From IMG/VR virus record IMGVR_UViG_3300029870_000003, positions 1 through 64,000 of that record: DNA of 64,000 nt; one strand, written 5' to 3'. Below the pieces are notes generated by a model. It did not search any database. It was not told where the DNA came from and saw nothing but the letters and a program-made list of their open reading frames with translations. Source of the stretch: a virus. Below, in pieces: positions 6,081-55,900 of the stretch. Numbering within the stretch: the stretch's first letter is position 1; each line of letters begins with the position of its first letter. The position numbers were made by a program, and so were the translations under genes.

Positions 6081-6581
6081 CATTCGTTGCGTGAAATTGT
6101 TATTATTATATATAGCAACCGCAACAAGGTCATTGCCATCAAAGAAGGCATAAGCTCTTTGACATATTGGAAAAGTAAAGCCGAGAAAATTCGTTCTAAA
6201 AATAGGGGTGCAGGCGCACTTTTTGTATTTAAAGACAGTTGGATGTGATTAGCCATAATTGCAATAATGCTGCATCCCAACAGCGGTGAGCATGGCTCTC
6301 AAATTCGTGGTAGCGCACGATGCCGCTTCATCCGCCTATGGTGTAACGGAAGCACGCCCGAAAGGAAACAGATGTGTAAATCCTTAACTATTCTTATCAA
6401 ATCGGGAAGATAGGTTCGACTCCTAGATGGTGGACAACGCTTCATATAAATTTATTATATTTTTTAAATGTACATGTTGCAGCGGCAACGATTGTTCATA
6501 GGATAGAAGTATTAAATAAGCAAAGCTCTGCTCGTCCGTGAGGATGGGCAGGGTTATCTTAAACTTAAAAAAAAATAGCGT

Positions 6582-19759: not shown

Positions 19760-19969
19760 ATGAGTAAAGTAGAAATGAAAAGAACACAACTATCAGAAAA
19801 GTTTGGTCTATATACAACTTGTGATTTTTTCTGTATGTTTGCACGTGGAAGAAGAAAAATTCCGCCAGAAGCTTGCTATGACCCAAGAAGAGACAGAGAG
19901 ATAAGGGCACATTGCAGAGAAGCGGAAAACGCACTCGCTGCTTATTACAATATAAAATTGATAGATTAA
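19760..19969 (+). CDS. Small HTH-like regulator (about 69 aa from MSKVEMK)
   Basis: MKRTQLSEKFGLYTTCDFFCMFARGRRKIP resembles a short XRE-type HTH. Confidence 0.3.
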   Translation: MSKVEMKRTQLSEKFGLYTTCDFFCMFARGRRKIPPEACYDPRRDREIRAHCREAENALAAYYNIKLID

Positions 19970-20762: not shown

Positions 20763-23546
20763 ATGGAATTAAATTGTGAAACAACAACTTTGAGTTTCAG
20801 CAAGGGTATGACCAACATACCAAGTGACATGATTTCGGAAGACGGAGAGTTGATGGAATCAGTAGGATTCGTTTACCGCAATGGCGAAATGGTACCTATC
20901 CAGAAGCCAGTCTGCATCACTGGCGACAATCCTGTAGAGGGAAAGCTCGTATATTGCCACAAGCAGGCTGACTACAGAAACCTCGTAACCTACATCGAGG
21001 ATGAGAAGAGCGGAAGCTACACTTTGAAGCTATATCCTGGCTTCAAGAGTGGCAACGTAGCAGACAGATTGGTTCAGACTGTTGAACTCGGAGCCAAGCT
21101 TCTCGATGTTAAGAGCATCGGTAACACTCTGGTATGCGCAACCGATAAGGGATTGCACTATATTCTTTGTAAGGGCAAATCTTACAAGGACTTGGGAACT
21201 GAACTGCCAATTCCAAAAGTAGAGTTTTACACCGACGGAACGGTTGATAACTGGCAGAAGGATCAGGATGATTTGAAGAAAGATTCGTTCATGTGCAACA
21301 TCAAGAGCTTTGTTGATGAGAATAATCGTTATGCCTATTATGAGCCATTTACCAGAGATGACGTTGAAGCTTACGAGCTGCACAGTACAGGACTTGGCGC
21401 TGATCCAGATTACTATATTACAGAGTTGTATACTACCCATACTGTAAAGCAGGACAAAGAGACCGATTTCAAAAATGCTATTGTCGGTCATGTTGAGCAG
21501 ATGATTAACTGGGTGAAAGACAAGAACAAATTCGCCTTTCCGTTCTTTGTGAGATTCGCCTTGAAGATGTTTGACGGAAGCTACACTCGCATTTCTAATC
21601 CTATCATCTGCTACCCTTCAATCATCCGCAACTGCAAGTTCGTTCAGATGTACAAGGGGGATAAGAGCTACTACAAGGAAGAAGATAGCCCAAATGGTAG
21701 CGGTATGTATATGTATCACATCGCATATAGTGGACTTTTCTTCAAGGCATCCATCGAAAACAAGGAAAACTGGTCGGATATTATAAAGGAAATTGTGATT
21801 TTCGCAACAGACGATGTTAAGTCTTTCGAGTTGAATGGGGATTGGAAGTTCAAGGACCCTATGGATGTTAACAAGACCATATTCTACAATGGAGGTGGAA
21901 CTTATCATGAAAACGTGGTAGATTTCAGACATTACAATTACAGAGGTGATGGCTATCATCCTCTTGCATCAGAATGGATTATGCCTGTTTTCAAGACAGA
22001 GGATAAGATGATAAAGGAACTGCTTGAAAAGACCCAGTTCTACAAGTTGTTCTCCTTGGATATGAACTCCAAATACCTTGATGGCGAGTGGCATGATTCG
22101 TCAGTAAAAAACGAATCAGCATCAGACGTTAACATTATTGAGGATGGAACGGTCTCCAATCTAACCGAACAGGAGCAGCTTAAAGTGGATGATTACTATG
22201 GATGGACCAGACTGGTGGCAGATAAGTTATTTACATACAATAGCAGAATCAATGCCATCGGCGTGAAGCGTTATCCTTTTAAGGGATTCAACTTCTTTAC
22301 GGAGAATAAAACTCCTGGACATTTCAGCTATGAGTACTACGTGCATATCGTGAACAGATACATGGACACATGGGTGAAGTCTGAACCAAACAATAATGCT
22401 GACCCTATGTTCTTCACAGGATGGCTATATTACCCAGATGTAAACGCCAAGGAAATGATTATTCGTAGAGTTGGCGATTCGTTGGGCTGGAGAGTGACTT
22501 TAAATCAGCATAAAATGCTAAATGGAGCTTATAGCTTTGTGAACCTTCCACGTACGAGCAAGAATATTTCTATCTCAAATATAGAGGTGCCAGTCGTTGC
22601 TACAGATGGGTATGAAGATTTGAACTCACAGATATTTACGTCTGTCGTCAACAACCCATTCGTTTTCGAGGCATCGGGCGATAACACCGTGGGCGCAGGC
22701 AAGATTTATGGCATCGTTTCAAATACCGAAGCCGTAAGTACAGGACAGTTCGGTCAATATCCGTTGCTCGTTTTCACAAGCGAAGGCATCTATGGCATGA
22801 GCGTCAACGCCGAAGGATTGTACTCTGCTTCTTATCCTATCTCCAGAGAGGTATGTAACGAGAACTCTCCATTCGTCCCTACAGGAAATATGGTATTCTT
22901 CACAGGTATGAAGGGATTGATGGCAACAACTGGAGGCAGCGTTGCTTTTATGAGCAATAAAATGAGTGGCTACCAGCCAAGCGAGTTGAGAACCCTTGAT
23001 GATGGAGCGTTTAGCATCTTTCTCGAAGATTGTATGATTGCCTACGATTATAATCAGTCGTTGCTTCGCATCTATGCAAAGGGAAAGTCGTACCAGTACA
23101 TATACAATACGGTTGACCAGACCTTTGCAATGGACAATAGCGGAATGGAGGCACAGGCTATTGTGAACGATTACCCAGACAACTTGATTCAGGACACAGA
23201 AGGCAATGTGTATTCTCTAACCGACAAGCCGGTTCCATTGAAAGATAAGAATCTCTACAGTGGTTATCTCATCACAAGACCATTGAAGTTCACTGGCTCA
23301 AAGATATTGAAGAGTCTCAGACAGATTAGTCACCTCAAAAAGTCGGCAGATGGCAAGCTTAGTCTGGAGGTATGGGCTAGCAACAATGCCGTTAACTGGT
23401 GCAAGCTGGAGAGCTTGAAAGGGAAACCGTGGGCTTATTTCACGTTCAAGTACAACTTGTCAAACTTCAAGGCATCCGATGCCTTCACAGGTTCCTTAGT
23501 AAGAGTGCAAAACAGAAGATCACTCATGCACGATATGGAATTTTAA
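20763..23546 (+). CDS. Large hypothetical protein (927 aa), possibly virion or host-interaction related
   Basis: Long intact ORF with no recognisable motifs; Gly/Asn/Tyr-rich, beta-rich composition. Confidence 0.45.
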   Translation: MELNCETTTLSFSKGMTNIPSDMISEDGELMESVGFVYRNGEMVPIQKPVCITGDNPVEGKLVYCHKQADYRNLVTYIEDEKSGSYTLKLYPGFKSGNVADRLVQTVELGAKLLDVKSIGNTLVCATDKGLHYILCKGKSYKDLGTELPIPKVEFYTDGTVDNWQKDQDDLKKDSFMCNIKSFVDENNRYAYYEPFTRDDVEAYELHSTGLGADPDYYITELYTTHTVKQDKETDFKNAIVGHVEQMINWVKDKNKFAFPFFVRFALKMFDGSYTRISNPIICYPSIIRNCKFVQMYKGDKSYYKEEDSPNGSGMYMYHIAYSGLFFKASIENKENWSDIIKEIVIFATDDVKSFELNGDWKFKDPMDVNKTIFYNGGGTYHENVVDFRHYNYRGDGYHPLASEWIMPVFKTEDKMIKELLEKTQFYKLFSLDMNSKYLDGEWHDSSVKNESASDVNIIEDGTVSNLTEQEQLKVDDYYGWTRLVADKLFTYNSRINAIGVKRYPFKGFNFFTENKTPGHFSYEYYVHIVNRYMDTWVKSEPNNNADPMFFTGWLYYPDVNAKEMIIRRVGDSLGWRVTLNQHKMLNGAYSFVNLPRTSKNISISNIEVPVVATDGYEDLNSQIFTSVVNNPFVFEASGDNTVGAGKIYGIVSNTEAVSTGQFGQYPLLVFTSEGIYGMSVNAEGLYSASYPISREVCNENSPFVPTGNMVFFTGMKGLMATTGGSVAFMSNKMSGYQPSELRTLDDGAFSIFLEDCMIAYDYNQSLLRIYAKGKSYQYIYNTVDQTFAMDNSGMEAQAIVNDYPDNLIQDTEGNVYSLTDKPVPLKDKNLYSGYLITRPLKFTGSKILKSLRQISHLKKSADGKLSLEVWASNNAVNWCKLESLKGKPWAYFTFKYNLSNFKASDAFTGSLVRVQNRRSLMHDMEF

Positions 23547-23555
23547 TGATTTCAA

Positions 23556-23705
23556 GGCTTTATAATATAATAAGGTGGTGTGCGTATAGCATTCCACCTT
23601 ATTTTGTCTCTGTCTAAACTATGAAGAAAAATACACTTTGGTGATACAACCTATGGATATTTTCCCTACTTTTGCACTCAAAATAACGCTTTAACAATTT
23701 TATTT
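23556..23705 (+). promoter_or_regulatory. Copy A of the terminator-miniORF-promoter cassette: hairpin aaggtgg...ccacctt, 7-codon ORF MKKNTLW-stop (23621-23644), -7 box TActTTTG (23651-23658)
   Basis: About 85 percent identical over 150 bp to 49474-49623; ends at the ATG of a lipoprotein gene. Confidence 0.55.
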
Positions 23706-24197
23706 ATGAAGAAATTATTATTCATTTTAGTGGCTATTGTGTCACTGTGCGCATGTAGTAGCGACGATGAGAGCCGAAGTAGTTCAACAAATCAAATCCT
23801 TTATAACGGAAAGGCTTATCGTATTGATAGTGTAACTTTGGGATATGGAAGGAAGATATGTATGTATAGTGGTTATTATCATCTAGTAGTACAAGACTAC
23901 CAAAGTCGTTTTAGTACAGAAAAGAATTGTTTCGTTCAGAATTTAGGTAGTTCTTTTTTCGATGATACAACAAATAGCAGATTATGCGACGAGTGGTCGG
24001 GCGTAGGAAACAATTATCACTTCACGCATGATGATGGAACCGAGAGCTGGGGTGTAGTAATGGGTGAATCGTCGTACGTAGATATTCAAAAGATAGGTAA
24101 TCAATATTCAATATCTATTTTATTGACTGATAATGAAAAATCAAAGCGACATACATTGAAAGCAACTTATTTAGGTCCGTTAAAAGTGGTGAAGTAG
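23706..24197 (+). CDS. Lipoprotein (163 aa), moron-like
   Basis: Signal peptide plus lipobox IVSLCAC; own promoter cassette and downstream terminator. Confidence 0.5.
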   Translation: MKKLLFILVAIVSLCACSSDDESRSSSTNQILYNGKAYRIDSVTLGYGRKICMYSGYYHLVVQDYQSRFSTEKNCFVQNLGSSFFDDTTNSRLCDEWSGVGNNYHFTHDDGTESWGVVMGESSYVDIQKIGNQYSISILLTDNEKSKRHTLKATYLGPLKVVK

Positions 24198-24215
24198 TTT
24201 ATAAGCCGAAGGCGG

Positions 24216-24698
24216 CTACGCTCTACGAGCTGCCGCCTTCTTGGAAAGATATTCAATTATATAGCCAATGGAAAATGCGTATAGATGAAGCAAGCCGTTC
24301 ACGTTGCTCAGCAGCATCGTGAAGAGAATGAACGGCATCGCTTTCTTGATCGCCTCCTTCCATCGCCCCGTCCGTCCCCAAAGGATTCCGAACTGGGCGA
24401 AGAGAAAACCAGACAAGCCCATCGTCGGCTCGCCGACGTACATAGGCAGAAAACTGGCAGCCACGGCTACCATGAAAGCCTTCACAGGTGTGAGTCTGTT
24501 CTTAATCTGCCAAAGAACCAGCAGATTCACGGCAAGATGAAACACGTTGACGTGAAAGAAACTGTAGATGATATGGTACTCCATGGGAAGTGCCGGACCG
24601 AAACCTACATGCCATGGCAACAGAATGATGCAGAGGATGGAGATTGCAGCCTTCAATCCAAAGTCTGGCTTACTTGTTATCTCTGAAATCCTTACCAT
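24216..24698 (-). CDS. Rhomboid-family intramembrane serine protease (160 aa)
   Basis: Multi-TM protein with GLSGF (GxSG catalytic Ser) and a downstream His in LLHLYAFSIGY; short 6-TM rhomboid architecture. Confidence 0.55.
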   Translation of the reverse strand: MVRISEITSKPDFGLKAAISILCIILLPWHVGFGPALPMEYHIIYSFFHVNVFHLAVNLLVLWQIKNRLTPVKAFMVAVAASFLPMYVGEPTMGLSGFLFAQFGILWGRTGRWKEAIKKAMPFILFTMLLSNVNGLLHLYAFSIGYIIEYLSKKAAARRA

Positions 24699-27689: not shown

Positions 27690-28001
27690 ATGGGAAAGAT
27701 TAGCGAAGAACTACAGATGATTGACTCCATCTTGATGGAGTTCCATGAGCGCATTCAGTCGGGGCGGTGCTTGACAAACAAGCAGCAGAACTCGATGATG
27801 TTGAAGTTCCTTCACCAAATCGCCAACAAGGATGAGCCTATCAACAAAACGGCTGCATGCGAGTACGTACAGGTTTCAAGGGCTACATTTGATAGACTGG
27901 TGAAGGCTGGCAAACTTCCGAAAGGAAAGAAGCGGAAGGGTAGTACTGAACTAGTCTGGTACGAAAAGGATTTAGATAAATACATTGATAAGTTAATCTG
28001 A
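27690..28001 (+). CDS. AlpA/Xis-family HTH DNA-binding protein (103 aa)
   Basis: ACEYVQVSRATFDRLVKAGKLPKGKK...VWYEKDLDKYI resembles excisionase/AlpA winged HTH. Confidence 0.45.
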   Translation: MGKISEELQMIDSILMEFHERIQSGRCLTNKQQNSMMLKFLHQIANKDEPINKTAACEYVQVSRATFDRLVKAGKLPKGKKRKGSTELVWYEKDLDKYIDKLI

Positions 28002-32541: not shown

Positions 32542-34569
32542 TTATGCTGATTGATAATAATTATTGTTCAAACTCATAGCCTGTGCCACGGCGTTCTGGT
32601 CTGCTCCCTGCACGATTCCGTTTTCAACCATTCCGCCGCCCTGCTGCTGGGCAATAGCCTGCTGCTGCTGATACATCTGTTCAAGCTGCTCCTGCTGCTG
32701 CTGAACGCTGGCAAGAAGCTTGTCGGCGTATGGCTTGTTTACATTCTGCAGATATTGAATCAGGTTGATGGCACCCATTCCGAGCAACTCCTTCAAATCG
32801 TCATTCTGAATGGTGTTGTATGCCGCCGTAGCCGCTGCATTCTTGATGCTGATCTTAAAGTGAATGTCTCTTGCAGAAAGTCGGTCGTAACTGTAGTTGG
32901 TCAAACCGTCCTTGTTGAATATCTTCCTGCCGTCCTCGTAATACTGCTGAATGATGGAACACTTCTTCATAGCCAGCTTCTCCGTGAATATCTCCATGTC
33001 AGATAAGATGGTATATAAAGATGTAGTGGCATTCTGGCTTTCCTGTGCGTATCTTGCTGCCGAAGTTCCTGCCGAAGGAGTCTTGCCCTGCAAGGCACCG
33101 CTCACGTTGGTAACCTCCCGAATCAGATTCAGCTCTATCTGCAAGAGTTCGTTGGTTCCGATATTCACGGCGTTCGATGTAATAACCTCTGGCTTCACGT
33201 TCGGCATACTGCGCTTAGGCGTATAGAAAATCCATCCGTCGTATTCGATGGCTTCCTCCATGAACTCCCTTGGACTCTTGCCGCCCAATACCGTGGTTGG
33301 AATCATCTTGAATCCCTTGAAACTGCTTCTGATGCTCATGTCGTTCATCACAATCAGGCGGTTGATGTATCTCTGCTGGTCTATTACGTTCGTCATAAAC
33401 GGATGAATCTCTCCGTTGATGTACGGATAGAGCTTCACGGTAAATGGGTGACTCTTGAAATCGTAGGGTGATTCTCCCTGACTCAGAATTGTTCCGTCGG
33501 GAGCCATGAAGGTATAGTACCAGTACTTATCGGCTACCTCTTCCGATGTAATGTAGGCTCGCTCGTCTTCCGGTATGCCCAGTTCGTCATACTGCTGCTT
33601 GCGCTTCTCGTTCTTCTTTCTCAGGTCGGCAATCATCGCTGTATCTTCCAAGTCAACCCTGAAATACGCATCATTGGTATTTTGGGCAATTGGGTCGAAG
33701 CACTGCAAGCGTGGCTTGGTCTCCGTGGTCCACACTTCAATCACTCTATGGTAGTGCTTGCCCTTGTTGGAGAAATCAAAGCTGAGGTTATCCAAATCCT
33801 TCTCCTCGTTAAACTCATAGCCGTAACCGCCATCGTCCATTTCATCATTGATGCCGAATATCGCATTCAGGTCGGTAACGCTCAGTCCGTATTCCCTTCG
33901 GGCAAACTTCTGGTACAAATCTTCTCTGCTCACATCATGCAGACAGCCTATCAGACTGATGTCGTTGTGGCGTGGGTCGCTTCCGCACTCAAAAAACATG
34001 TGGTCGGGTTCCATCATATCCGTCCACGCATCGGGCATTTCCAGTTCCCTGTCTTCCCAACTCTCTCTGGCATACATCTGTCCGCCTTGCAGATAGTCCT
34101 TGATAAAGTGGTTCAGCAAATCCTGCATGCCGGTAGTCTGCCAGTTGCATTGCATCGTGGCACTCATCATGTCGCTCAGTTGTCGGGAGTCATTATCTCT
34201 TGCAAAGCAAACTGGTTCCGTGCCCTGCTTGGCATAGAGACCAGTGATAGACTCCAAGATGCTTACCATGATGTTGTTGCTCATCGGGGTCTGGTTGCGC
34301 TTCTCCATATAGGTTCGCTCGCTCATCTCCTCCCAGTAGCCATGATGATACACCCTGATGGTGTCGCTCCATTGATCGCCTGTGCAATAGCGCATGGTTC
34401 TCGCTCTTGTCTCACGCACTCCGCTCAGATTATTCCAGGCGTTCCTGCATCGGGTCTGCAATTCCAAATCCTTGTTATGCTCCTGCCGTCTCTTTCGAGC
34501 CTTCACCGAGTCATACTTGCTATGGCTTGGCATCACCTTGCTAAGTGTTAATATTCTCGCTTTTGCCAT
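32542..34569 (-). CDS. Portal protein (675 aa) with poly-Q C-terminal tail
   Basis: Size, position at the head of the packaging operon, and Gln-rich C-terminus (QQQQEQLEQMYQQQQAIAQQQGGG). Confidence 0.5.
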   Translation of the reverse strand: MAKARILTLSKVMPSHSKYDSVKARKRRQEHNKDLELQTRCRNAWNNLSGVRETRARTMRYCTGDQWSDTIRVYHHGYWEEMSERTYMEKRNQTPMSNNIMVSILESITGLYAKQGTEPVCFARDNDSRQLSDMMSATMQCNWQTTGMQDLLNHFIKDYLQGGQMYARESWEDRELEMPDAWTDMMEPDHMFFECGSDPRHNDISLIGCLHDVSREDLYQKFARREYGLSVTDLNAIFGINDEMDDGGYGYEFNEEKDLDNLSFDFSNKGKHYHRVIEVWTTETKPRLQCFDPIAQNTNDAYFRVDLEDTAMIADLRKKNEKRKQQYDELGIPEDERAYITSEEVADKYWYYTFMAPDGTILSQGESPYDFKSHPFTVKLYPYINGEIHPFMTNVIDQQRYINRLIVMNDMSIRSSFKGFKMIPTTVLGGKSPREFMEEAIEYDGWIFYTPKRSMPNVKPEVITSNAVNIGTNELLQIELNLIREVTNVSGALQGKTPSAGTSAARYAQESQNATTSLYTILSDMEIFTEKLAMKKCSIIQQYYEDGRKIFNKDGLTNYSYDRLSARDIHFKISIKNAAATAAYNTIQNDDLKELLGMGAINLIQYLQNVNKPYADKLLASVQQQQEQLEQMYQQQQAIAQQQGGGMVENGIVQGADQNAVAQAMSLNNNYYQSA

Positions 34570-35542: not shown

Positions 35543-37246
35543 ATGTATAAAATGAAGAAAGATTGTTTTAAGAATTTTACGAGCGGTCAGTTCATCTTCA
35601 AGATGATTCTGATGCTTCTTGCCGTTGTTACAGGCGGTGGTATTCTTGCCATGGCTGATACCGCAGAGCCAACTACCCAGATTGGCGACGAGGGTCATGA
35701 GCCATCAACCAAGGCTGATGCTGCAACCGAACCAGTTGACCCAGAAAAGTCAGACCGATTGGCTCCAGGCGGTAAGGTGGAAGGTCAGGACTTGACCGGC
35801 ACGCAGGCTTCTGCAACCCAGATTCGAAAAGGTGGACTTGCCGAAGAGGATTGGGACGCCGAGGTAGAGAAGTATCGTCCTTTCCGCACTCCATTACTGC
35901 AGATTATCCGAAAGGTTACAAGGACGGTTCCTAGTGCGGGCTATGAAAAGAAGCACTCCCGTGTGGGTGGTGATACCCTTGACGGCAAGATTACCAAGGC
36001 GATTGATGCGGTTGAGGCTGGTGGTACTATCAAGTTTTCAAAAGCAAACTTCTCTGGTTCACTTCTTCCTCTCTACAAAGGTAGTACAGTTATTGTTCCT
36101 TCTGTTCCTGGTTACGAGCCTGGTTCCAAGACCAAGGTTAGCGGTCGCTTGAATCTGTTGGTTATCGAGAAGACAAAGGATGAAGTTACCTTGCAGGCTC
36201 TCAATGGTCCTGCCGAGACAGAGGGTACTGTAGGCGAAACGCTTGATACCATGGGTTGCCCAGCTATTCCAGCCAACAGTCGCATTCTCTGTGCTTCTAC
36301 CATTCTCTCCGAGAGCCAGATGAACGTTCCGCCAGAGAACTATCAGCCTCGCAATGCGGAGGTTTACTTGCAGAAGCGTGCGTTCTCCATCATCTTTACC
36401 GAGGAGTTTGAGAAGATCAAGAAGAAGGCTCCTCATACCGTTGCCGACATGAAGGAAGATGCTCTCACTAAGTTCTTGCTTCGTCAGGAACGCAGTTACC
36501 TATATGGTACCAAGCGAAAGTTCCTTATGGAGACCAAGGACGGTGCTCAGGAGTACGCTTACTCTGCTGAGGGTATCATCAATCAGTTGACTAACGCTTA
36601 TGGCATCGGCGAGGTCTATACTTTCGCTGACCTCATCGCCATCGCCAAGCTGATGTTCACCGACTTCGCCGAGTCTGATGAAATGTATATCTTCTGTGGC
36701 AAGAATGCCATCGAGCGACTGATGAAGATTGAGCTTCCTAAGGGTCGTGATGTAATGTTCTCTACTGTCAAGGAGTTCGATATTACCTTCAGTAGCTTCA
36801 AGTGTAACTATGGTACACTCAACTTCGCTTGGGATAGCACACTCGACTACATGGATTTGGAAGACTGCATGATTGGTGCCGACTTCAAGGGTGCTCGTCA
36901 CTACGTCAAGGAGAAAAGCAAAGAGCGCACCAACGACTTGTCGAAGGATGCTTACGACCCACGTCTGGCTAAGCGATACATGCACTGGGAGGCTGATTGC
37001 GTTGCTCTCCGTGGTTACAACAGCATCATCGCTGGTCCAGAGGATAAGATTTCTGCTCTCGGCGCATCGGGCGTTATCAACAACATCATCTCGCTGAGCA
37101 CTCTGCCAGAGACTCCTCGTGATGGTATGATTGTCGCATTGACTGCCGATTATGAGTCAGGCGGCATCAAGTACGAGAAGGAGAATGTTTACATCTGGAA
37201 GGGCAGTAAATGGGAAATCTTCTCAGGTCAGATTGTTGCAGCCTAA
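35543..37246 (+). CDS. Putative major capsid protein (567 aa; start may be internal)
   Basis: Position after the scaffold; size and composition consistent with an HK97-fold capsid protein; no motif-level proof. Confidence 0.4.
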   Translation: MYKMKKDCFKNFTSGQFIFKMILMLLAVVTGGGILAMADTAEPTTQIGDEGHEPSTKADAATEPVDPEKSDRLAPGGKVEGQDLTGTQASATQIRKGGLAEEDWDAEVEKYRPFRTPLLQIIRKVTRTVPSAGYEKKHSRVGGDTLDGKITKAIDAVEAGGTIKFSKANFSGSLLPLYKGSTVIVPSVPGYEPGSKTKVSGRLNLLVIEKTKDEVTLQALNGPAETEGTVGETLDTMGCPAIPANSRILCASTILSESQMNVPPENYQPRNAEVYLQKRAFSIIFTEEFEKIKKKAPHTVADMKEDALTKFLLRQERSYLYGTKRKFLMETKDGAQEYAYSAEGIINQLTNAYGIGEVYTFADLIAIAKLMFTDFAESDEMYIFCGKNAIERLMKIELPKGRDVMFSTVKEFDITFSSFKCNYGTLNFAWDSTLDYMDLEDCMIGADFKGARHYVKEKSKERTNDLSKDAYDPRLAKRYMHWEADCVALRGYNSIIAGPEDKISALGASGVINNIISLSTLPETPRDGMIVALTADYESGGIKYEKENVYIWKGSKWEIFSGQIVAA

Positions 37247-46957: not shown

Positions 46958-47962
46958 TTAACCCCAGAATCCTGCACCGTTGGCAGCATTCAAACCATAC
47001 AAGCCAGCCTGATAAGCCACGCAGTTAGGAACCGCAGTAAATGGGCTGTAAGGAGTAGTCACAGTCTCAGGCAACTTACACTTGATGCTAGCCACCTCGT
47101 TCTGCAAGCCAGCCAATACCTGATTGATAGGTGCTACAGCCTGACCCACGATTTGTGAAGTCATAGCAGATGCCTTGAAGGTACTGTTCTCCTCACGCAG
47201 AGCATCAATCTTATTCTGCATTTCACGCATCTCCTGCTGCTTCTGACCGTTGACGATGGTAAGAGTGCTTTCCTTGATGGCATTTTTTAACTCACAAGAC
47301 TGGTCCTTGGTAGCATAGGCAAGGGAAGAAGCCGCACGCTCCTGACCTACTGCCACGTTGTTGATGGCATTCTGCAAGGTTCCAGTCTGCTGACACATCG
47401 CCAACTTGATATTGCCGTCCATGGCGGTAATGTTGTTGTTGGTCTTGCAGCAGCATTCTGCCAACTGGGTAGCGATTGCGTTGTTACCCTGCATGATGGC
47501 GGTCAATACCTGATTTGCAGTCATGCCCATCTGGTTGCCGACACCGCAAATCTCCTTGCTTACACCATTGATGGCAGCGATAACGTTACCAGTAGTAGTG
47601 TTGAGAGCAGTAGCGAGCGACTGAACATCGAAGCCATTGCGCTGAACAGCCTGCATGATAACAGCCGTATTGGCATCGTTGTTAATCATAGGAGCAACAC
47701 CGCCCTGTCCGTTAGGCATGAAGCCACCACAGTTGGAACCGCCGAAGAAGTTGCCTCTACCCATGATGATGAAGAGAAGCAAGATGGCAAACAAATCATT
47801 GCCCCAACCGCCACCATTGCCCTTGCCGTTGCAGAGAGCAAACAGACTTGGATCTACACCCTGTCGCTGCATAAGTGCTGGGAGCATAGCGAGAATGCTA
47901 TTGAAACCGCCGCCCTGGCTGGTTCCGTTCTCCCCGAATACGTAAGTTTTTGACTCACTCAT
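46958..47962 (-). CDS. Gly/Asn/Gln-rich single-TM protein (334 aa)
   Basis: GGGFNS...GKGNGGGWGN...TM LFAILLLFIIMG...GNFFGGSNCGGF; Cys cluster ECCCK; promoter box TAacTTTG at 48005-48012 (minus). Confidence 0.45.
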   Translation of the reverse strand: MSESKTYVFGENGTSQGGGFNSILAMLPALMQRQGVDPSLFALCNGKGNGGGWGNDLFAILLLFIIMGRGNFFGGSNCGGFMPNGQGGVAPMINNDANTAVIMQAVQRNGFDVQSLATALNTTTGNVIAAINGVSKEICGVGNQMGMTANQVLTAIMQGNNAIATQLAECCCKTNNNITAMDGNIKLAMCQQTGTLQNAINNVAVGQERAASSLAYATKDQSCELKNAIKESTLTIVNGQKQQEMREMQNKIDALREENSTFKASAMTSQIVGQAVAPINQVLAGLQNEVASIKCKLPETVTTPYSPFTAVPNCVAYQAGLYGLNAANGAGFWG

Positions 47963-48739: not shown

Positions 48740-49483
48740 ATGAATGATTTGGTCTTCAAAGGTGCAAACAACCTGGTTCTGACAAATAGTTTGTTGGTAG
48801 CCCAAAAGTTTGGAAAGCGTCATAGTGATGTGATAAGAAGTATTGAGAAACTTCTTAATGTTGAAGACAAATCACTGAACGCAAAAATGCGTTTAGCCTT
48901 TGAATCAACAAGTTACAATGATGTTACTGGAAAAAGCAACCCTATGTACATAATGAACGAAAAAGGTTTTTCTATACTTGTTATGGGTTGGAATGGAGTC
49001 AATGCCTTAAAATTCAAAGATGAATTTTATGATGCTTTCGACAACATGAGAAGAGTTCTGGTAAATGAGCAACCAAAACAGATGTCTCAGTTGGAGATTC
49101 TCCAAATGTCCATCAACCAACTTGTTTCACAAGAACGAAGAATCGCCATGATCGAGGAAAAGGTTGCCAATATGGAGAAGGAGAGAATAGAGAATAGACA
49201 AAAGCTTCTTGAAGCAGAGACCTCTACTAATTCTGTTCCGGAAATCAAGCTCCGTGACAAAGTCCGCCAGTTAGTAAATCAATATTCTGCAGCAACAGAT
49301 ATTAAGCAGCAAGATGTCTGGAGAAAGATTTATCAGAATTTGTATTATGGATTTGGTATATCTATAAATGATTATAAGAAAAAAGCTAAGCAAAACAAGT
49401 TGGATATAGCAGAAGAACATGGCTTCCTCGGGAAAATGTACGATGTAATATCAAACATGATTAAAGAGTTGAAGGCTATATAA
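48740..49483 (+). CDS. Rha-family phage regulatory protein (247 aa)
   Basis: N-terminal NNLVLTNSLLVAQKFGKRHSDVIRSIEKLL matches the Rha family signature (..VTTSL.VAE.FGKRH.NVLR.IE). Confidence 0.6.
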   Translation: MNDLVFKGANNLVLTNSLLVAQKFGKRHSDVIRSIEKLLNVEDKSLNAKMRLAFESTSYNDVTGKSNPMYIMNEKGFSILVMGWNGVNALKFKDEFYDAFDNMRRVLVNEQPKQMSQLEILQMSINQLVSQERRIAMIEEKVANMEKERIENRQKLLEAETSTNSVPEIKLRDKVRQLVNQYSAATDIKQQDVWRKIYQNLYYGFGISINDYKKKAKQNKLDIAEEHGFLGKMYDVISNMIKELKAI

Positions 49484-49623
49484 TATAATAAGGTGGAGTG
49501 CGAAATGTACCACACCTTATTTTGCTTCTGTCTAAACTATGAAGAAAAATGCACTTAGGTGATACAACCTATTGATATTTTTAGTAAATTTGCGCAAAAA
49601 TTAACGCTTTAACAATTACGATT
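49474..49623 (+). promoter_or_regulatory. Copy B of the terminator-miniORF-promoter cassette: hairpin, mini-ORF MKKNALR-stop (49539-49562), -7 box TAaaTTTG (49590-49597)
   Basis: About 85 percent identical to 23556-23705; ends at the ATG of the next gene. Confidence 0.55.
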
Positions 49624-49926
49624 ATGAAGAAATGGCTTTTATGTTTTTATGTGTTCTTGGGATGTTTTGTTCTGAGATTGATTAGTGACGCCACTAGTAT
49701 CTTTCATGACACATCAGAGATTGACGATGGATTGTATCATCCCACTCCATTTGTGAAAAGACTCACAGAATCTTTTACGGTTTTGCTGGATATGATTATT
49801 ATGATACCGATTGCATTACTTATATATCATTTTCTTGGCGAAAAGAACCAATATAGAGTATTGATTACCCTACTAAGTTCTTGGGCTATCTATGACATTA
49901 TTTTCCATGTAGTAAAAATGCTTTAA
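49624..49926 (+). CDS. Membrane protein (100 aa), moron-like
   Basis: Signal/TM at the N-terminus and a second TM helix; own promoter cassette; terminator at 49940-49975. Confidence 0.45.
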   Translation: MKKWLLCFYVFLGCFVLRLISDATSIFHDTSEIDDGLYHPTPFVKRLTESFTVLLDMIIMIPIALLIYHFLGEKNQYRVLITLLSSWAIYDIIFHVVKML

Positions 49927-49982
49927 TTTGCTATAGTGTAAAAGAGAGGAGTGAGCCTTGTACCCACTCCTTTTTCTCTATA

Positions 49983-52900
49983 TTAATTCAACTTATCCAA
50001 ATCATCCACCGCTTCCATCATGATTCTATCAATATTCTGATTGGCAAAATTAATGGATTCCGTATCAGAAGATTTATCTCTAAGCTTCTTCCACTGCTTC
50101 ATCTGCTTCTCAGCCAGTTCTATCACCCTAACCTTGGCAGCATCCTTGGAGTTCTGGAATCTGTAGTAATCAGAATAGTTACTGATTCTCTTCTCAATCG
50201 GAACGTTCTTCGATTTCAGTCTATCCACGTTCGCAATCATCTTCTCCATTTCATCCTTGTAGTTGTACCACTTACTCTTGGTTCGCTGCAAGCTACTCTG
50301 CTCGTTCGGCGTATAGAGAAGAGAGCGAATGAAAGGAATATCCTTGGTTTCCGTATCTTTGCCGTTCTTCACCAAACCGCCAACTCGCTCTACGAATGTA
50401 GCAGCACCGCCCAAATAACTTCCGTAGAAATGGTGCAGGGCAGAAGGATTCGTAACAGCATCAAGGAAATCATTACCCTTCATATCCTCGTTGCCAGCAG
50501 CAACATCGTTCGACCAGGCATTTGCCTTCTTATTCATGTTTATCATCCATTCAGGCGTTCCTCTATATGCAAGCATCCATGATGGCTGATTCTCGTCATA
50601 CTTATCGTCACGCTGAATAGGAGCACCCTTCCAGTCGCTATTGTACACCCACTCCAAGAAAGGAGCCGTAGGAGAAGGTGCCACCGCCTTGATGGTTTCC
50701 TGAGCAGGATGCTTACCAAACGAAGAATTACCGAGATAATCAGCCACAGGAACCAGCTGAGACATGCAGCCTACAGCGTCCATGAACGGATTCAGATACT
50801 TGTCAATATCCTTATTCTCCGTAAGGTTTGGCATCTTCTGGCTTGAAATATTCTTCGAGAAGGTCATGCCGGCAGCAAAGTCACCCAAGCCATAGAAAGC
50901 TCTCTCCTCAATCGCAAGCGGAATAGTAACGAACTCGCCACCACCAATATATACACATAGGTTATTTCTTCTGATATAATCAGGAAGCTCTGCGTATGGG
51001 TCCTGCACGCCCTTTCTGTCCTTCTCATCCTCATGGCTGATGACGAAGTTATTGAGGAGAGCCATAGCCATACCGCTGATAAATGGAGCACTGGCTATAT
51101 AGCCGATGGTGCCAGCTTTGTTGTTCTTGAAGTTCTTAATCAGAAGATTGGTACTCTGAATACCTGCATTGAAGAACATGGAACCATTTCTGAACCAAGC
51201 AGCAGAGAAGCCGTAGATATTCCTTCTTGCAGTCTTGCCTGTTCCCATTTCCCCATTCTTGAAAGAGTAAACGGCGTTACCCGAACCATGACGGTTAAAA
51301 TTGGTTGATACTTCCTTCGCATCATACACCGAACGGATGATAGAGCGGTTACTGTCACGACTAGCGCAATAGGTAGCGAAGCGAGCCAAATTCTCGGCAA
51401 TCTCATTGACGTTCTCCAAGTTCTTGAAGATAGCGTCATAAAAGCCCTTGCCAACCTTTTGAGTCTTCTTTCGTTCGCCTTCGATGTGCATCTTGTATCT
51501 GTCTGTCCAGTCCTTCATGTTCATAATCTGAACCCAACCAGTCTCGCCGCCGTTCTCCATAAACTCCTTGAAGTATTTCTGAACCCTGTCAGAAGTATCA
51601 AGTGTTCCGTTGCGGTATTTGGCAAACAGACCGAAGCCGCCTGTATCTCCAAAATCTTTCAGCTTGGAATTTCTGATACCTTCGATAAGACCCACCTTAG
51701 CGTAGTACTTTTCAAATCTCTTGGTATATGCAAAACCTTCCTTTGCCAAAAGGTTAGTTGATGCAAACTCAAAGTCCTTGATCATGTTTCGCATCACGAA
51801 CTCTGGGTTGAAGGAAGTGCAGAGCTGAGCCATAGCTCTTGAAATCTTGGCAGTAACTCGTCCTGCCAGAGAATCGTTCTTATGCTCCAGCAACCCATTC
51901 AACGCCTGCGCCGCTCTAGGATTTCCATTGATAATGAACGCATGGGTCCTTCCGGCAATCTTCACGTCCACGATGTGCTGCGATTTGTTCTCCGCTCTCT
52001 GGAACTTATAGCCAATCGTGCCTCTGCGGTAAACCTTCGATGCTAAGTTCTGCAATGCCTTCGCCTTCATGTCCTTGTTGAAATCAGAAACAATCTGGTT
52101 GATTTCGTCAGCAGTAGCATCCTCAGGAATATCAGGATAACGCTCATATACGATACCGGTCATAGGGTCCTTCTCATACCATACACTCGTTTCAGTAATC
52201 AGATTATTGTTCGAGTTGTTTCTTGCGAATCTCGCAAACGCCTGTCTGATGGCATTCATACCGCCGTTCTTGATAGCCCTGTTGCCCATCGCACCAATCT
52301 GCGCCAGTACGTTAGTCTCACTCAGATACTTGTGTCCTCTCGCTCTCATGATCGTGCTTCCGATGTAGCTCTTAGGGTCGCCCACCTCCGTGATATAACC
52401 ATACACATCTTCCGCCGTAGCCTCATCATACTTTCTCAAAGGCACATACCAGTTGAACATATTGGAAACATGACCGTAGAGTTCACTGCTGATGATACCA
52501 TTCTTATAGTCGCTGTCAATCGAATACTGGGTAGCAGCCTTCACCTTATCCCAATAGTCCTTCACAGCTCCCTTCTTGATGCTCTCCATCTTTGCTTCCG
52601 AATCCATCACACTCTGAATAGCCTCAGCATCATCGTAAGGGTCAGAAGATTTCGCTACCTCCTGAATAGCGTGAATACCCGAATAGTCGTGCTCGCCAGC
52701 CTCGAAGTCGGCATCAAAGTGGTTTCTGATACTCTCGTCCAACTGTCTGTAGTACTCCTTCAGGTCGATGTTGCCAGCCTTCAACTCATTGTCAAGATAC
52801 TCCTTATCGCTATAATAACTGTTTTCCAGGAAGTCAGCATCCTGCTTCTTCTTCTCGTCCCTTCTCATCTTCTTCAGGAAGTCACGAACAAAGAACACTC

Positions 52901-55900
52901 TGTTTCGCTCCAAGCCATGCTTGGTAATCATGTAGAGATTGAAGTTGCGAATCTTCTCATCATCCTTCTTTCCGTCGAAGGCATCCAGTACGTCAGCCAT
53001 CGCCTTATCCAGCGGCTTCATCACGTTGCGCTCAAACATCTGAGCCGCATCGCTCATCGCACCCTGCATGGTGTTCTGCAGCATATAAGGATTCTCAGAA
53101 GAAGCAATATCCTCAATCTTCTTGTCAGGCACAATCGCATTCATCAGTTTCTTCAATGAAAGCATATTGTCCATATAGCTCTCGGTGAACATATAACCGT
53201 GCTCATCCAGCGAACGGTGGTATCTGTCAAGTGCCGTGCCGGCAGATGGGGTGGTGCGAAGGTGAATATCACCATCTGTAGCTTCATTCCACTCACTCTT
53301 GGTAAGACTGTCCATACTGCGAACCTTGCCATCGTTGCCGTAGAACATGCCATCATGCGCCACGACAGCAGGCATACGGTCATTGTCGAGACGGTATTTC
53401 ACCGCCTCGGCTCTCATTTTCCAATAAGGATCATTCTGATTCTTCTGCAAGTTCTTGCTCAACCAGAGCAGATACTTCACATCTTTAGTATTAGGAGCAA
53501 TACGATAACCGATTTCATGAAGGAAATCAGATACCTTATTCTTGATACCATTCCAGAAGCCCGGTTCACCCTTGCCATCCTCGGCGAGTCGGGCGATACC
53601 TTCCTCAATGGCATCGTAGATATTCAGAGGATTGTACTTTCTCTCCTCATCCACCAGCTTCTTCAAAGCCGCATTCTCAGGCTTATCCAAGTCATACCAC
53701 ACATCACGAAGGAACTTGTCGAATCGTTCATCACCAAACAACTCTCTCATGCCCTTGTGTCCAACCACCTCATGCCAGATAGTCTTCTCGGCAGTATATC
53801 TATCGTGGATATTAGGCATGTAAAGATGCACATCGCCAGTCTTCTCATCATACCAACCGGTTATCTTTCTGCCTTCCTCAATAGCAGCCCTAGCCGCCTT
53901 GTTGGTGATTTCATCAACCGATGAAACCATCTTCACCTTGCCGCCAGTCTTCTGAGCCACCTTCTCCACATGGCTCTCAACCGATGAAGCAGGGTAGTTG
54001 CCATCACCGTGGTCCGTGCGGAACTTGGTGCCGCCGTCCTTGCCCCATACCTTAAAGGCATCCTTTGTCATTTTCACGTCAACGAACTTAGCCTGAGGGA
54101 ACTCCTGTTCCAGTTCAGCCATCTGCTGCAAGAACTTCTCCTTGGTTTCAGGAGCCTGTCTTCCCGATTCAACGGTAGTGATAGGAACGCCCAGTTTAGC
54201 CAACTCCCTAACCTGATTAGGAGTAACCACATTCCAAGGGATAGCCAAGCCAGTGCCCTTCAACTGCTCTGCGATACTCTCAGCCACCTCTGAATCAGGA
54301 ACCACTCTCACCGCCTTTCTCCATCGTGAAAGCATCACCTGTCTCTGTCTGTCCTTTGGCAGAAGACTGTTCACGGAACCAGAGTGCCATGGCACAAGAC
54401 CCACGGCATCCTTAGCACCTTCAGCGTGATAGCCGCTAGTCTTCTCGCTCTCAGGAATCTCCCATTCCACAACCTTGATGTTGCCTCTAGCGTAAGCACC
54501 GGTAAACTGGTCGTTCATCATAGAAGTGGAAGTGTGCATGTAAGGATTGTAGGCAGCGAGAATATCACGCTCACCAATACCTTTATTCTTGTCTGTTTTT
54601 ACGAGATTAAACTTGCCGTTCTTTACAAGGTCTGGTCGCTCGTCTGCGCCCATCCAAGCACCAATCTCGGTAGCATCGGTACGCTTTCCGTCAATGATAG
54701 CAGCCATAGGGGAGTACAACTTTCCGTCCACCTCCTGCATTCCGCTATACATTCTGAAAGTCTTCTCCTTGTTGAGGCGGTCCAGCTCGTCCTTGTCAGT
54801 AACCTTGTAGCCCTGATACTCATCCTTGAAAAGCTCATTATCGTTCTGGGAAGCAAAGTCAAACTGTTCCTTTCCGAAGTTGTCAAGAAGCTTGGTAAGA
54901 GTTCTTTCCATTTCCCCAAGCTTGTTATATTTAGGGTCTTTGCCAATCATTCGGCAGATAGCATTTATCAACTTCTGATACCACTTCTTGGCAGCAGGTA
55001 TCTTTCTCAAAGCACTACGCCATTCAGGTGAAGCAAGTTCGGTAATCATTTCTCTAGGATTCTCCAATCCGTAGTAGTCTCCCAGCTTGCCGTCTTTCTG
55101 CATCTTGATCAACTCATTGTAGATGTCAACCGCATCCTTGGCAGCCTCGATCTGCGAAGGAGAAAGCTTGTCTGTATGCCCCTTCTGATACATGGCAATA
55201 ATGTCAGAAGTAAGAGGATGCAGCATTTCGTGGCAAAGAGTAGATGCAAGATTCTGTTTTGCATAACCAGCTGCGCTGAGTCTGTCAACATTCAGCTTGA
55301 TGAAATTCTCTGAGTGTTTGTAGTAGCCCTTGGTTCTTGCCAGTTCAATGCTACCCATATAGAACTCTGTTCCAAGGCTTCGCAAACTGTTTACGATACT
55401 GTCATAGAGTTCCTTTATTTCTGGGTCAGAATTGTAGTCGTTGAAGATTCTGTCAATCGTTTCGTAAGAAACAGGCTCATCCCTCTTTAGCCCATAAGTT
55501 TCCTGAAGAGATTTCGACCTTGCGAGAATATACGCCTTAGCCCTTTCTGCTGCGGCTTTTCTGATAGAGAGTGCTTTGTAGTCGTTGAGAACATCAAGTG
55601 CTCTTCTTTCTCCGCCTCCTCCTGGCAGAGTCTTAGCTTCTCCTCCAGTTCCTTCTTGTTGTCCTTTATCTGAGGTATTGCGTCCACTACCACTTCCCTC
55701 AGAATTGATTTTTCTGAGGATGGAGTTAACAAGCTCTCCGATGTTGGCATCTTTTCTGATTCCGTACTTTGTTTCATACTCATTAATCTTCTTGGTTAAA
55801 TCGTCAATAACAGTGTTAAGACCTTCTGATAGTGTAAAGTTTTTGTTTTCATCTACTTCCCAACTATTCAGTGTCTGGTCTTTTGAATACAAGTCGATGG

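Follow-up and report, generated by a model that had tools for sequence, protein, structure and literature searches.

Why does a gut phage carry the same stretch of about 150 nt twice, each time in front of a gene for an envelope protein? The question is raised by the 64,000-nt window analysed here, by which we mean the whole stretch of DNA (positions 1 to 64,000 of IMG/VR record IMGVR_UViG_3300029870_000003), from a phage group whose host is probably Prevotella/Segatella; some 12-16 kb of the genome lie outside it. A first-pass annotation had described the stretch as a portable terminator, mini-ORF and promoter unit on which moron genes are mounted. Comparison with about 90 related phage contigs leads us to think it likely that the repeat is a two-part cassette, in which a predicted terminator is followed by a host-type promoter for a single envelope-protein gene, in the layout of a moron. 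Our verdict on its sequence is a moron-type regulatory cassette resembling the promoter-early stem-loop (PeSL) elements, an arrangement whose kind is already known and which is now seen in a further, new group of phages.

Anatomy of the repeat

Copy A (23556-23705) and copy B (49474-49623) are 82% identical in an ungapped alignment, and a repeat search widens the pair to 23543-23715 and 49461-49633, again ungapped, with 83% identity. The repeat is therefore real, but its identity is a little below the 85% or so first given for it. On the right, the likeness continues for 9-10 nt into both ORFs (ATGAAGAAA), contrary to the proposal that the cassette ends exactly at the ATG. On the left, it enters the coding 3′ end of the gene preceding copy B and, if two gaps are allowed, may extend over some 75 nt as far as the CAGAAGA near 23512. 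The flanks, which had been said to differ, are thus not wholly unrelated, given that copy A retains a remnant of the end of the gene before copy B. Only two full-length copies were found in the 64-kb window by nhmmer; a weak match at 19790-19849 (E 0.03), considered as a third copy, lies within a plausible coding frame and was treated as chance. Blastn of copy A against GenBank phages and PLSDB plasmids gave no match. The features of the two loci are as follows.

20763..23546, + strand: p927, a 927-aa gene (phrog_32516) upstream of copy A
23512..23568, + strand: left junction of the insertion that holds copy A, a relic of the gene preceding copy B (its 3′ coding end)
23569..23607, + strand: copy A hairpin (hairpin 23569-23603), AATAAGGTGG-U-GUGC-loop-GCAU-U-CCACCUUAUU, of intrinsic-terminator shape
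23612..23629, + strand: copy A promoter blocks I (GTCTAAACT) and II (AAGAAA), about 55 and 43 nt upstream of the -7 box
23621..23644, + strand: mini-ORF MKKNTLW-stop, incidental
23643..23676, + strand: copy A promoter core, with block III (GATACAACCTATGGATATTTT), 3 nt and the -7 box TACTTTTGCA (23667-23676)
23677..23705, + strand: predicted 5′ leader of copy A, holding the conserved ATAACGCTTTAACAATT
23706..24197, + strand: cargo A, predicted lipoprotein of 163 aa, GC 35.8%
24206..24244, no strand assigned: hairpin after cargo A, -23.2 kcal/mol, z -3.6
46958..47962, - strand: p334, a 334-aa gene (phrog_16490), which bounds the variable slot on the left in about 50 related contigs
48740..49483, + strand: rha, gene of a Rha-family regulator, whose 3′ end, together with its terminator, makes up the left part of copy B
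49487..49525, + strand: copy B hairpin (hairpin 49487-49521), predicted terminator of rha, with the run UUAUUUUG overlapping its 3′ arm
49530..49594, + strand: copy B promoter, with blocks I and II, block III (49561-49581) and the -7 box TAAATTTGCG (49585-49594)
49539..49562, + strand: mini-ORF MKKNALR-stop, incidental
49595..49623, + strand: predicted 5′ leader of copy B (ATTAACGCTTTAACAATT...)
49624..49926, + strand: cargo B, small membrane protein of 100 aa, GC 33.3%, three hydrophobic segments by hydropathy count
49943..49975, no strand assigned: hairpin between cargo B and the convergent giant gene, of terminator shape on both strands
49983..63977, - strand: giant polyvalent gene (ddrB-ParB, methyltransferase, Sno-type helicase, LPD38), whose 3′ end is the right border of the slot

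Both copies have a stable stem with a T-run, in the shape of an intrinsic terminator, as the first-pass annotation had it, and the hairpin half is the predicted terminator of the upstream gene. The hairpin starts 23 nt past the upstream stop codon in copy A and 4 nt past it in copy B, with folding energies of -21.1 kcal/mol (z -5.5 against shuffles) and -16.1 kcal/mol (z -3.05), respectively. The run UUAUUUUG, at 23600-23607 in copy A, overlaps and follows the 3′ arm in both copies and is interrupted by one A. Neither hairpin was flagged by a simple terminator scan with a loop limit of 8 nt, because both loops are longer than that. Across eight variants, 96.7% of the cells of the 15-pair helix are paired and two pairs show compensatory changes, a thin covariation whose level is often reached by shuffles. 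The hairpin occurs on its own in L193 and L197, and the promoter without the hairpin in most relatives, where only weak hairpins precede it; the terminator half is therefore not constant in the family. In metagenomes, the composite of hairpin and promoter was found after at least four different gene ends and before at least six cargo types. The proposed 150-bp unit does hold both a predicted terminator and a predicted promoter, but as a composite whose halves occur separately in relatives.

A conserved predicted promoter ahead of variable cargo

The promoter half covers about 100 nt after the hairpin, and its -7 box, TAnnTTTGCA, starts 39 nt upstream of the cargo ATG in both copies. The Bacteroidota primary-sigma consensus is TAnnTTTG at -7 and TTTG at -33. 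Both -7 boxes, TACTTTTG at 23667 in copy A and TAAATTTG at 49585 in copy B, fit this consensus and are those that had been annotated, and transcription is predicted to start a few nt past them. Neither copy has a -33 TTTG where one would be expected, some 19-21 nt before the -7 box: the sole upstream TTTG of copy A is 26 nt from the box, copy B has none, and the -33/-35 region is occupied by the fixed 21-nt block III (GATACAACCTATCAATATTTT) of the phage family. The canonical -33 box of S. copri, AAAnnTTTGG, is likewise absent from the window copies at the expected spacing. In S. copri itself, dRNA-seq placed a -7 box upstream of more than 70% of primary start sites and the -33 box at only 15% of starts (10.1101/2024.04.05.588293).

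The promoter belongs to a family of 74 instances, 53 of them distinct in sequence, with four blocks at fixed spacing. The alignment is near gap-free over some 80 nt and column identity in blocks I-IV is 80-100%, while the 12-13 nt between blocks II and III vary freely. Every member used in the conservation analysis has the -7 box 25-53 nt from a start codon, and the element is always oriented toward the ORF that begins at this distance. Mean identity was 85% for the promoter versus 62% for the adjacent p334 coding DNA, and the approximately 100-nt promoter stayed nearly unchanged while neighbouring genes diverged to 45-60% protein identity. A search with the core pattern recovered 67 viral loci, with fewer than one match expected by chance on our own estimate; scans of IMG/VR with short 14-15-mers gave mostly chance matches, which were sorted afterwards by nhmmer. 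A representative member (L295) had no blastn match among GenBank phages, and a search of the first 50 kb of a Bacteroides phage, a distant relative, did not find the family. The core pattern also precedes host genes in Prevotellaceae, including sigma-70 (rpoD-like) and trpS, but the search forced 19.5 of the 33 positions and the free ones are only mildly biased, so that host promoter mimicry is kept as a hint.

The seven-codon mini-ORF, which had been taken for a conserved leader peptide, is present in both window copies, but its ATG is found in only 11 of the 53 distinct sequences; elsewhere the start is replaced by ATA, GTA, ACA or GTGTAG (the last in L006), and one variant that keeps the ATG lacks the stop. 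The mini-ORF stop codon is also the start of a conserved promoter block. As neither its presence nor its stop is kept among relatives, a role as leader peptide was rejected. More generally, it seems extremely improbable that an RNA element, either an attenuator built on the mini-ORF or a small RNA, explains the conservation of the repeat. The ORF in both copies and a conserved length of some 150 nt, more than a minimal promoter requires, speak for such an element. However, a mini-ORF placed between the terminator and the -7 box would seldom be transcribed, there is no conserved pairing outside the hairpin, and the variable spacer lacks compensating changes in most members. With Rfam 15, the sole match at the gathering threshold in the window was a tRNA elsewhere and none fell on the repeat, where all scores were below every gathering threshold (best relaxed matches 20.7 and 19.6 bits versus gathering scores of 58.7 and 45).

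Cargo B fills a variable slot bounded by p334 and the giant gene, and the slot between the orthologues of these two genes is syntenic in about 50 contigs. The giant-gene counterparts of distant isolated relatives are annotated as DarB-like antirestriction proteins; a crAss-like phage with its own virion RNA polymerase was considered and rejected, the giant ORF being a polyvalent antirestriction-type protein. The slot promoter precedes about 11 unrelated cargo families, nearly all of which have a signal peptide, a lipobox or membrane segments, as expected of secreted proteins, lipoproteins and membrane proteins. The element thus stands before many unrelated cargo genes in related phages. Such variety of cargo does not necessarily imply a mobile promoter, as the promoter copies are for the most part orthologues in a single slot. 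Judging from these alignments, a variable slot has the promoter as its fixed left edge, and cargo is apparently exchanged downstream of this element.

The two window cargoes agree with the envelope proteins first annotated, as cargo A begins with MKKLLFILVAIVSLCACSSDDE, which resembles a lipoprotein signal, and cargo B has its three hydrophobic segments. Cargo A matched no known family and has six unnamed homologues; its structure model, of moderate quality (pLDDT 73.7), is all-beta, and fold searches of PDB and BFVD gave no match with E <= 0.001. The GC content of the cargo genes (33-36%) compares with 42.9% for p927, 49.1% for the rhomboid-like gene convergent with it, 46.5% for the giant gene and 43.6% for the window. 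The cargo would most likely serve in cell-surface modification or in the exclusion of other phages.

Copy A lies in an insertion missing from most orthologous sites

Copy A is part of an insertion of about 690 nt. Among 44 p927 loci, 11 have the cassette and cargo and about 30 are empty, with p927 directly followed by a shared terminator and then by the convergent gene. The hairpin at 24206-24244 is homologous to this ancestral two-way terminator, which in empty sites stands between p927 and the convergent rhomboid-like gene. In the alignment, the homology of p927 to its empty-site orthologues stops at about 23518, with the break at CAGAAGA, and the cassette-less relatives have no alignable counterpart of the sequence that holds its last nine or so codons and its stop. 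The last 24 nt of the left junction match the gene end preceding copy B at 19 of 24 positions. Since the insertion bears this 3′-end relic, it derived from a copy-B-type locus, and it was probably joined at the short shared CAGAAGA. The donor locus itself, in the order rha, terminator, promoter and lipoprotein gene, was not found in the metagenome scan. A MITE-like element was rejected, given that the insertion (23512-24205) has neither terminal inverted repeats nor a target-site duplication: its two 60-nt ends share no inverted match longer than 6 nt, and no direct repeat flanks it.

The non-functional gene-end relic indicates that copy A arose by copying, and the similarity could be the mere trace of one past duplication, with copy A having no present function. 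We hold this to be very improbable, given that copy A and its ten orthologues have kept all four promoter blocks as well as the hairpin pairing, with most differences in the spacers, that the cargo A ORF is intact in three allelic forms (153, 163 and 174 aa), which argues against a functionless duplicate, and that the promoter family is more conserved than adjacent coding DNA. As to a deletion between the two direct copies, recombination would remove the terminase, portal and capsid genes and would thus yield only defective genomes.

Proposed mechanism, rival readings and known systems

In the reading that we favour, the intrinsic terminator would stop the upstream transcript, and the promoter of about 100 nt would be read by the host RNA polymerase with its primary sigma factor, the two blocks upstream of the 21-nt block either making UP-like contacts or serving as the site of a regulator. 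From this promoter a single low-GC gene, which codes for a lipoprotein or a small membrane protein, would be transcribed via a leader of 25-40 nt, and the cargo gene's own downstream hairpin would close the unit, giving an insulated, self-expressed accessory gene. Copy A would be a secondary copy, for which a copy-B-type segment (gene tail, terminator, promoter and lipoprotein gene) would have been inserted between the 927-aa gene and its old terminator. Promoter and terminator activity, as well as the timing of expression, are predicted here from the DNA sequence. Of the modular moron unit proposed in the first-pass annotation, the self-contained layout and the reuse with different cargo hold at the sequence level and the leader peptide does not. 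Nor did its suggestion of lysogenic conversion find a counterpart, as there was no sign of lysogeny and Pfam found no integrase domain in 29 window ORFs, including most of the larger ones.

Blocks I and II have a more specific sequence than a generic AT-rich UP element, which could mean control by a regulator rather than constitutive strength. If they were the operator or activator site of a phage regulator, the family would be a timed class of accessory-gene promoters, a reading that we consider unlikely. It would account for the conserved G/C positions in both blocks and for their exact spacing to the core throughout the 53 distinct sequences, and GATACA is surrounded in some variants by a 9-bp inverted repeat, in which changes in one arm are matched in the other (GCGATAGGT/ACCTATCGC in L193; GTGATAG..GGT/ACCTATCAC in L237). 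Candidate regulators are the Rha-family protein, whose gene is directly upstream in the window and in L292, the adjoining 136-aa protein and an HTH protein at 27690-28001. However, rha is not near most family members, the inverted repeat is missing from the window copies and from most others, other window promoters lack blocks I and II, so that no regulon is visible, and the presence of the core block before Prevotellaceae host genes points to contacts with the host polymerase.

A rival reading that we hold to be less likely than not is that the repeats are chiefly PeSL-like recombination handles by which co-infecting relatives swap, insert, invert or delete cargo, with the promoter role being secondary. 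The conserved promoter, together with the hairpin, offers 50-150 bp of homology, cargo differs behind a near-identical promoter in about 50 syntenic loci, and a homologue of the copy A lipoprotein is found in the slot of another phage (L284, 27% identity). Units of promoter and cargo are found in either orientation, with convergent pairs in L197, L263 and L282, a stray fragment of the 3′ end of the giant gene adjoins a promoter copy in L197, and the window phage encodes RecT and an SbcC-like nuclease. Against this, the insertion of copy A appears to have been joined at a 7-nt microhomology in a coding region and not at a promoter copy, and there are only two copies in 64 kb, compared with the dozens of PeSLs that T4-type genomes reportedly hold. 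Moreover, the right border of the slot is a gene end and not a second cassette. The arrangement of the cassettes is mixed: one slot is clearly hypervariable, and cargo has a cassette on one side only, with two convergent copies in the three contigs named above. We keep to the expression cassette as the main reading, in which the conserved promoter may be used as a recombination handle.

PeSLs are mobile regulatory cassettes of T4-type phages (Arbiol et al. 2010, PMC2839356; Comeau et al. 2014, PMC4122927). Like them, the repeat is small and conserved, combines a terminator stem-loop with a host-type promoter whose upstream region is conserved as well, lies in the variable part of the genome beside orphan accessory genes, and marks insertions, deletions and replacements between close relatives. 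It differs in having a Bacteroidota -7 box, whereas PeSLs have sigma-70 -35/-10 elements, and the phages are unrelated, those studied here having a P22-like portal and the DarB-like giant gene. Furthermore, there are two copies per genome and mainly one slot, the cargo is almost always an envelope protein, and the one datable insertion used a microhomology outside the cassette.

Morons were reportedly described in lambdoid and other phages by Juhala et al. and by Hendrix et al. in 2000. As with morons, an extra gene is found in some relatives and is absent at the same site in others, with its own predicted promoter and terminator and a differing base composition, and often codes for a membrane protein or lipoprotein. 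Classical morons were defined in temperate phages and are expressed from the prophage, whereas no integrase was found in the ORFs scanned here, and in the present family one promoter recurs before many different morons. Putative mobile promoters, said to have been put forward by Matus-Garcia, Nijveen and van Passel in Nucleic Acids Research in 2012, share with the repeat a homologous intergenic promoter sequence upstream of non-homologous genes. That concept comes from bacterial chromosomes, often with transposable elements, whereas here most copies are orthologous at one phage slot and it is the cargo that changes. The strong Bacteroides phage promoter P_BfP1E6 (Whitaker, Shepherd and Sonnenburg 2017, Cell) is a widely used tool (PMC11554821; 10.1101/2025.03.18.644028). 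By description only, it resembles the present element as a phage-derived Bacteroidales promoter with a -7 element, and it has UP elements.

For annotation, the seven-codon ORF should not be called a gene. The fragment of about 100 nt is a candidate strong promoter for Prevotella/Segatella, which are still short of good expression tools; the analogous P_BfP1E6 is now a standard part. As a tentative possibility, this gut-phage clade might carry a dedicated plug-in socket of about 100 nt that both expresses envelope-protein genes and, as a PeSL-like handle, exchanges them among co-infecting phages, with a core that resembles the promoters of the host's own sigma-70 (rpoD-like) genes and with copy A as a socket caught seeding a second site. 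If true, a PeSL-like system would for the first time be known from phages other than the T4 type, in a version specialised for cell-surface cargo. Abundant uncultured gut phages would then have one conserved expression socket through which small envelope proteins are rotated. Superinfection exclusion or receptor masking is most likely the work of such envelope proteins, so the slot would be a good place to look for new surface interactions between phage and host.

The two copies of the repeat and their promoter family

Copies A and B of the hairpin-plus-promoter repeat (23556-23705 and 49474-49623) are 82% identical in an ungapped alignment, a correction of the ~85% first claimed, and a repeat finder carries the match out to 23543-23715 and 49461-49633, at 83%. 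On the left the similarity begins within the 3′ part of a coding sequence that precedes copy B and, contrary to the claim that the cassette ends exactly at an ATG, it takes in the first 9-10 nt of the ORFs on the right (ATGAAGAAA). The hairpin and the Bacteroidetes -7 box announced for each copy are both present, the former with a stable computed fold and followed by UUAUUUUG in both copies. A profile search of the 64-kb window with the element gave no further full copy.

Features of the two copies
23569-23603: copy A hairpin, -21.1 kcal/mol, z -5.5
23667: copy A Bacteroidota -7 box, 39 nt upstream of an ATG
48740-49483: rha, Rha-family regulator gene, just upstream of copy B
49487-49521: copy B hairpin, -16.1 kcal/mol, z -3.05
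49585: copy B Bacteroidota -7 box, 39 nt upstream of an ATG

IMG/VR was scanned with conserved stretches, yielding orthologues of both copies, and with the core pattern GATACAAY-N8-ATTTT-N3-TAnnTTTGC, which occurred at 67 loci, nearly all on human-gut viral contigs of 37-80 kb (by our estimate, less than one match is expected by chance). Including the window, the family counts 74 instances and 53 distinct sequences, which align essentially gap-free over ~80 nt.

Conserved blocks of the promoter family, counted upstream from the first base of the -7 box and not from a transcription start
Block I: GTCTAAACT, starting ~55 nt upstream
Block II: AAGAAA, starting ~43 nt upstream
Spacer, block II to III: 12-13 nt, variable sequence
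Block III: GATACAACCTATCAATATTTT, starting 24 nt upstream
Spacer, block III to IV: 3 nt
Block IV: TAnnTTTGCA (-7 box), position 0

Many members share a leader (ATAACGCTTAAC) after the -7 box, and the promoter always points at an ORF starting 25-53 nt past that box. Phage pairs with 62% identity in the adjacent coding DNA of p334 (334-aa gene) reach 85% in the promoter, which is therefore under constraint or being homogenised. In a dRNA-seq preprint on S. copri, the -7 box is reported upstream of >70% of primary start sites and the -33 box at only 15% (10.1101/2024.04.05.588293); the -7 box is common to these promoters and our family, whereas the -33 box is not in the family. The unusual length and rigid spacing of the promoter are one of two features that set the cassette apart, and the Bacteroides phage promoter P_BfP1E6 may be related to it.

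The first-pass annotation had also proposed a conserved mini-ORF, and each window copy does have one 7-codon ORF. However, the ATG is found in 11 of the 53 distinct sequences, being replaced elsewhere by ATA, GTA, GTG, ACA and others (GTGTAG in contig L006), and the stop, lost in one variant, consists of a T ahead of block III plus the first two bases of that block. We regard the mini-ORF as incidental, since its ATG is not kept and its stop is the promoter block start; lying between terminator and promoter, it would also be expected to see little RNA. No Rfam family matches the element.

In some members (contigs L193, 3517-3546, and L237, ~7740-7770, -) an inverted repeat of 9 bp surrounds GATACA (GCGATAGGT...ACCTATCGC), and in another lineage its two arms have changed in step (GTGATAG..GGT...ACCTATCAC); it is missing from copies A and B, and could be an operator in the lineages carrying it. 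Two relatives of this phage, L037 (~6000-6060) and L082, have the leader 15-mer AACGCTTTAACAATT at another locus as well, just past a hairpin (CACCCTACTCACGCAGGGTG), and the window has a 14/16 match (5824-5839, minus strand). A weak likeness to the family at 19790-19849 (+; E 0.03; TATACAAC...TATGTTTGCA), within what we read as a plausible coding frame (ATG ~19761), is probably chance or a decayed copy, and two further promoter-like repeats (1496-1552 and 5485-5541, +; 72% identity, each closing with TGTGTAyyTTTGCATCCGT) probably represent another promoter class of this phage.

A composite unit and its arrival at site A

Of the portable unit first proposed, the constant part is the promoter, which precedes ~11 unrelated cargo families (single-linkage clustering, E < 1e-5), and the hairpin is not constant, most relatives having only weak hairpins ahead of the promoter. 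The 150-bp unit is a composite, in which the AAGGTGG...CCACCTT hairpin is the predicted terminator of the gene preceding copy B. Both the window and L292 have rha in this place; L193 and L197 have the hairpin closing rha with no promoter behind it, and the promoter lies elsewhere without the hairpin. Across IMG/VR and 19 metagenome contigs, the composite has at least four different gene ends upstream and at least six cargo types downstream. Eight hairpin variants have 96.7% of cells paired, and two inner pairs are altered on both sides (GUGC/GCAU, GUGA/UCAU, AGUAC/GUACU), suggesting modest covariation support.

We compared 44 loci with a relative of p927, the 927-aa protein encoded upstream of copy A. 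In ~30 of them a two-way terminator (AAAGGCGGCU...GCCGCCUUU) lies no more than ~60 nt past the p927 stop, ahead of a convergent rhomboid-like gene; the window's clade (11 loci) is alone in having ~690 extra bases there, comprising a gene-tail relic, the hairpin, the promoter and the lipoprotein gene (cargo A), which the old two-way terminator now ends. Homology of the window p927 to the empty-site orthologues stops at ~23518, past which the copy A flank can be aligned to the tail of the gene preceding copy B (19 of the last 24 nt and, with two gaps, possibly ~75 nt, back to a shared CAGAAGA). By this alignment, the direction was from a copy-B-type locus to site A. The insertion has neither terminal inverted repeats nor a target duplication, and was probably joined by microhomology. 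The flanks had been said to differ, yet they are partly related, copy A having on its left a relic of the gene tail that precedes copy B.

Another phage, L284, has distant homologues of the copy-A lipoprotein (27% identity) in its main slot, and site A holds lipoprotein alleles of 153, 163 and 174 aa. In L353 (5857-6462), L354 and L366 the same intergenic region holds instead a 201-aa minus-strand ORF, whose N-terminus (GYEGLYxVSxxG, recognised by eye) we take to be typical of HNH homing endonucleases. The site seems to take in insertions repeatedly.

The cargo slot

The gene content is that of a tailed phage, which also has a terminase-like gene, an endolysin gene, RecT and an SbcC-like nuclease.

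Phage genes of the window
32542-34569: P22-like portal
35543-37246: SU10-like capsid protein
49983-63977 (-): giant ORF of at least 4664 aa, running off the window, with ddrB-ParB, methyltransferase, Sno-type helicase and LPD38 domains

Deletion between the direct copies, suggested at first, would remove 26 kb including the terminase, portal and capsid genes; from this gene content, we infer that recombination between A and B cannot be productive.

In ~50 contigs the promoter lies between the p334 orthologue (window 46958-47962, -) and the giant gene 3′ end, a slot whose content varies from contig to contig. Its cargo includes an 82-aa lipoprotein, a 152-aa protein with two membrane segments, membrane proteins of 215, 309 and 458 aa, several signal-peptide proteins of 145-179 aa and the window's own 100-aa membrane protein (cargo B). 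A hydrophobic N-terminus is missing in only two small families, and the strong bias to predicted envelope proteins is the second distinguishing feature. Cargo A and cargo B have a GC content of 35.8% and 33.3% (43.6% for the window), each with its own hairpin downstream, which is the layout of a moron. The cargo A model is all-beta at moderate confidence (pLDDT 73.7), and a fold search gave no match with E <= 0.001. Right behind the lipid-anchor cysteine of cargo A comes an acidic run (CSSDDE) that is similar to the surface-export signal of Bacteroidota. The most likely role of the cargo is surface modification or exclusion, by analogy with Llp of T5 and Cor of T1-like phages, which are exclusion lipoproteins.

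A separate 284-aa ORF lies beside a promoter copy in L197 (5736-6590, +), L263 and L282, and matches the giant-protein C-terminus at 69-81% identity; these contigs also have a second giant-type gene, only 36% identical. The fragments look like rearrangement traces around the slot. Adjoining p334, ~110 nt (47963-48075) with its divergent promoter (TAACTTTGCA, minus strand) plus CTGCCTAACTATGCTCAAA are conserved in ~35 relatives, above the flanking genes. Elsewhere in the window, a leucine-rich-repeat protein gene (43156-44229) contains 4-5 tandem 69-nt units (43507-43851, +), equal to 23-residue protein repeats, and a tRNA gene (6007-6081, +; Rfam 45.6 bits), read by ARAGORN with a four-base anticodon 'gatg' and no amino-acid assignment, could be frameshift-suppressor-like or otherwise odd.

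Host, mechanism and significance

A crAss-like phage with its own RNA polymerase was rejected because the giant protein belongs to the polyvalent, antirestriction class, and transcription by the host polymerase is therefore expected. Bacteroides phages BKO1-TP3, BS-TP4 and BF1-TP2 are the closest isolates (portal identity 32-35%); BKO1-TP3, only distantly related, has a giant gene annotated as DarB-like antirestriction, and the promoter family was not found in its first 50 kb. Lysogenic conversion, as first proposed, is not supported, because nothing points to lysogeny: Pfam gave no integrase domain in the 29 window ORFs scanned.

L304 and L322, two phage-type contigs, fall in bins of Segatella copri and Candidatus Segatella violae, and among cellular genomes the core pattern comes mostly from Prevotellaceae, where GATACAAC-N8-ATTTT-N3-TAnnTTTGC precedes sigma-70 (rpoD-like) and trpS genes (L318, L312, L339, L297); in L318, GTATAAAT lies 31 nt upstream of GATACAAC, the spacing of phage block I. 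The phage promoter may have been copied from a strong host promoter, and Prevotella/Segatella may be the host; we keep both as hints, since the search pattern fixed most positions and the free ones show mild bias only.

We consider it probable that the predicted terminator would shield the cargo unit from upstream transcription, that host primary-sigma polymerase would read the promoter and express a single envelope-protein gene, and that the hairpin downstream of the cargo would stop the transcript. For blocks I-III, UP-like contacts with the polymerase are one reading; a regulator site is another, rather unlikely one. PeSLs in T4-type phages act as homology patches for cargo swapping (PMC2839356, PMC4122927), and a like role for our promoter, compatible with insulated host-driven expression, is a tentative possibility, in keeping with promoter-cargo units in either orientation, convergent promoter-cargo pairs and the stray giant-gene piece next to a promoter copy in L197.

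The cassette acts as a moron would, its terminator-promoter unit being PeSL-like, and fits the notion of a mobile promoter. Its evolutionary logic is familiar; what is new is the uncultured gut-phage clade carrying it. The element is well delimited and widespread in gut viromes, and could be of use as a promoter part.
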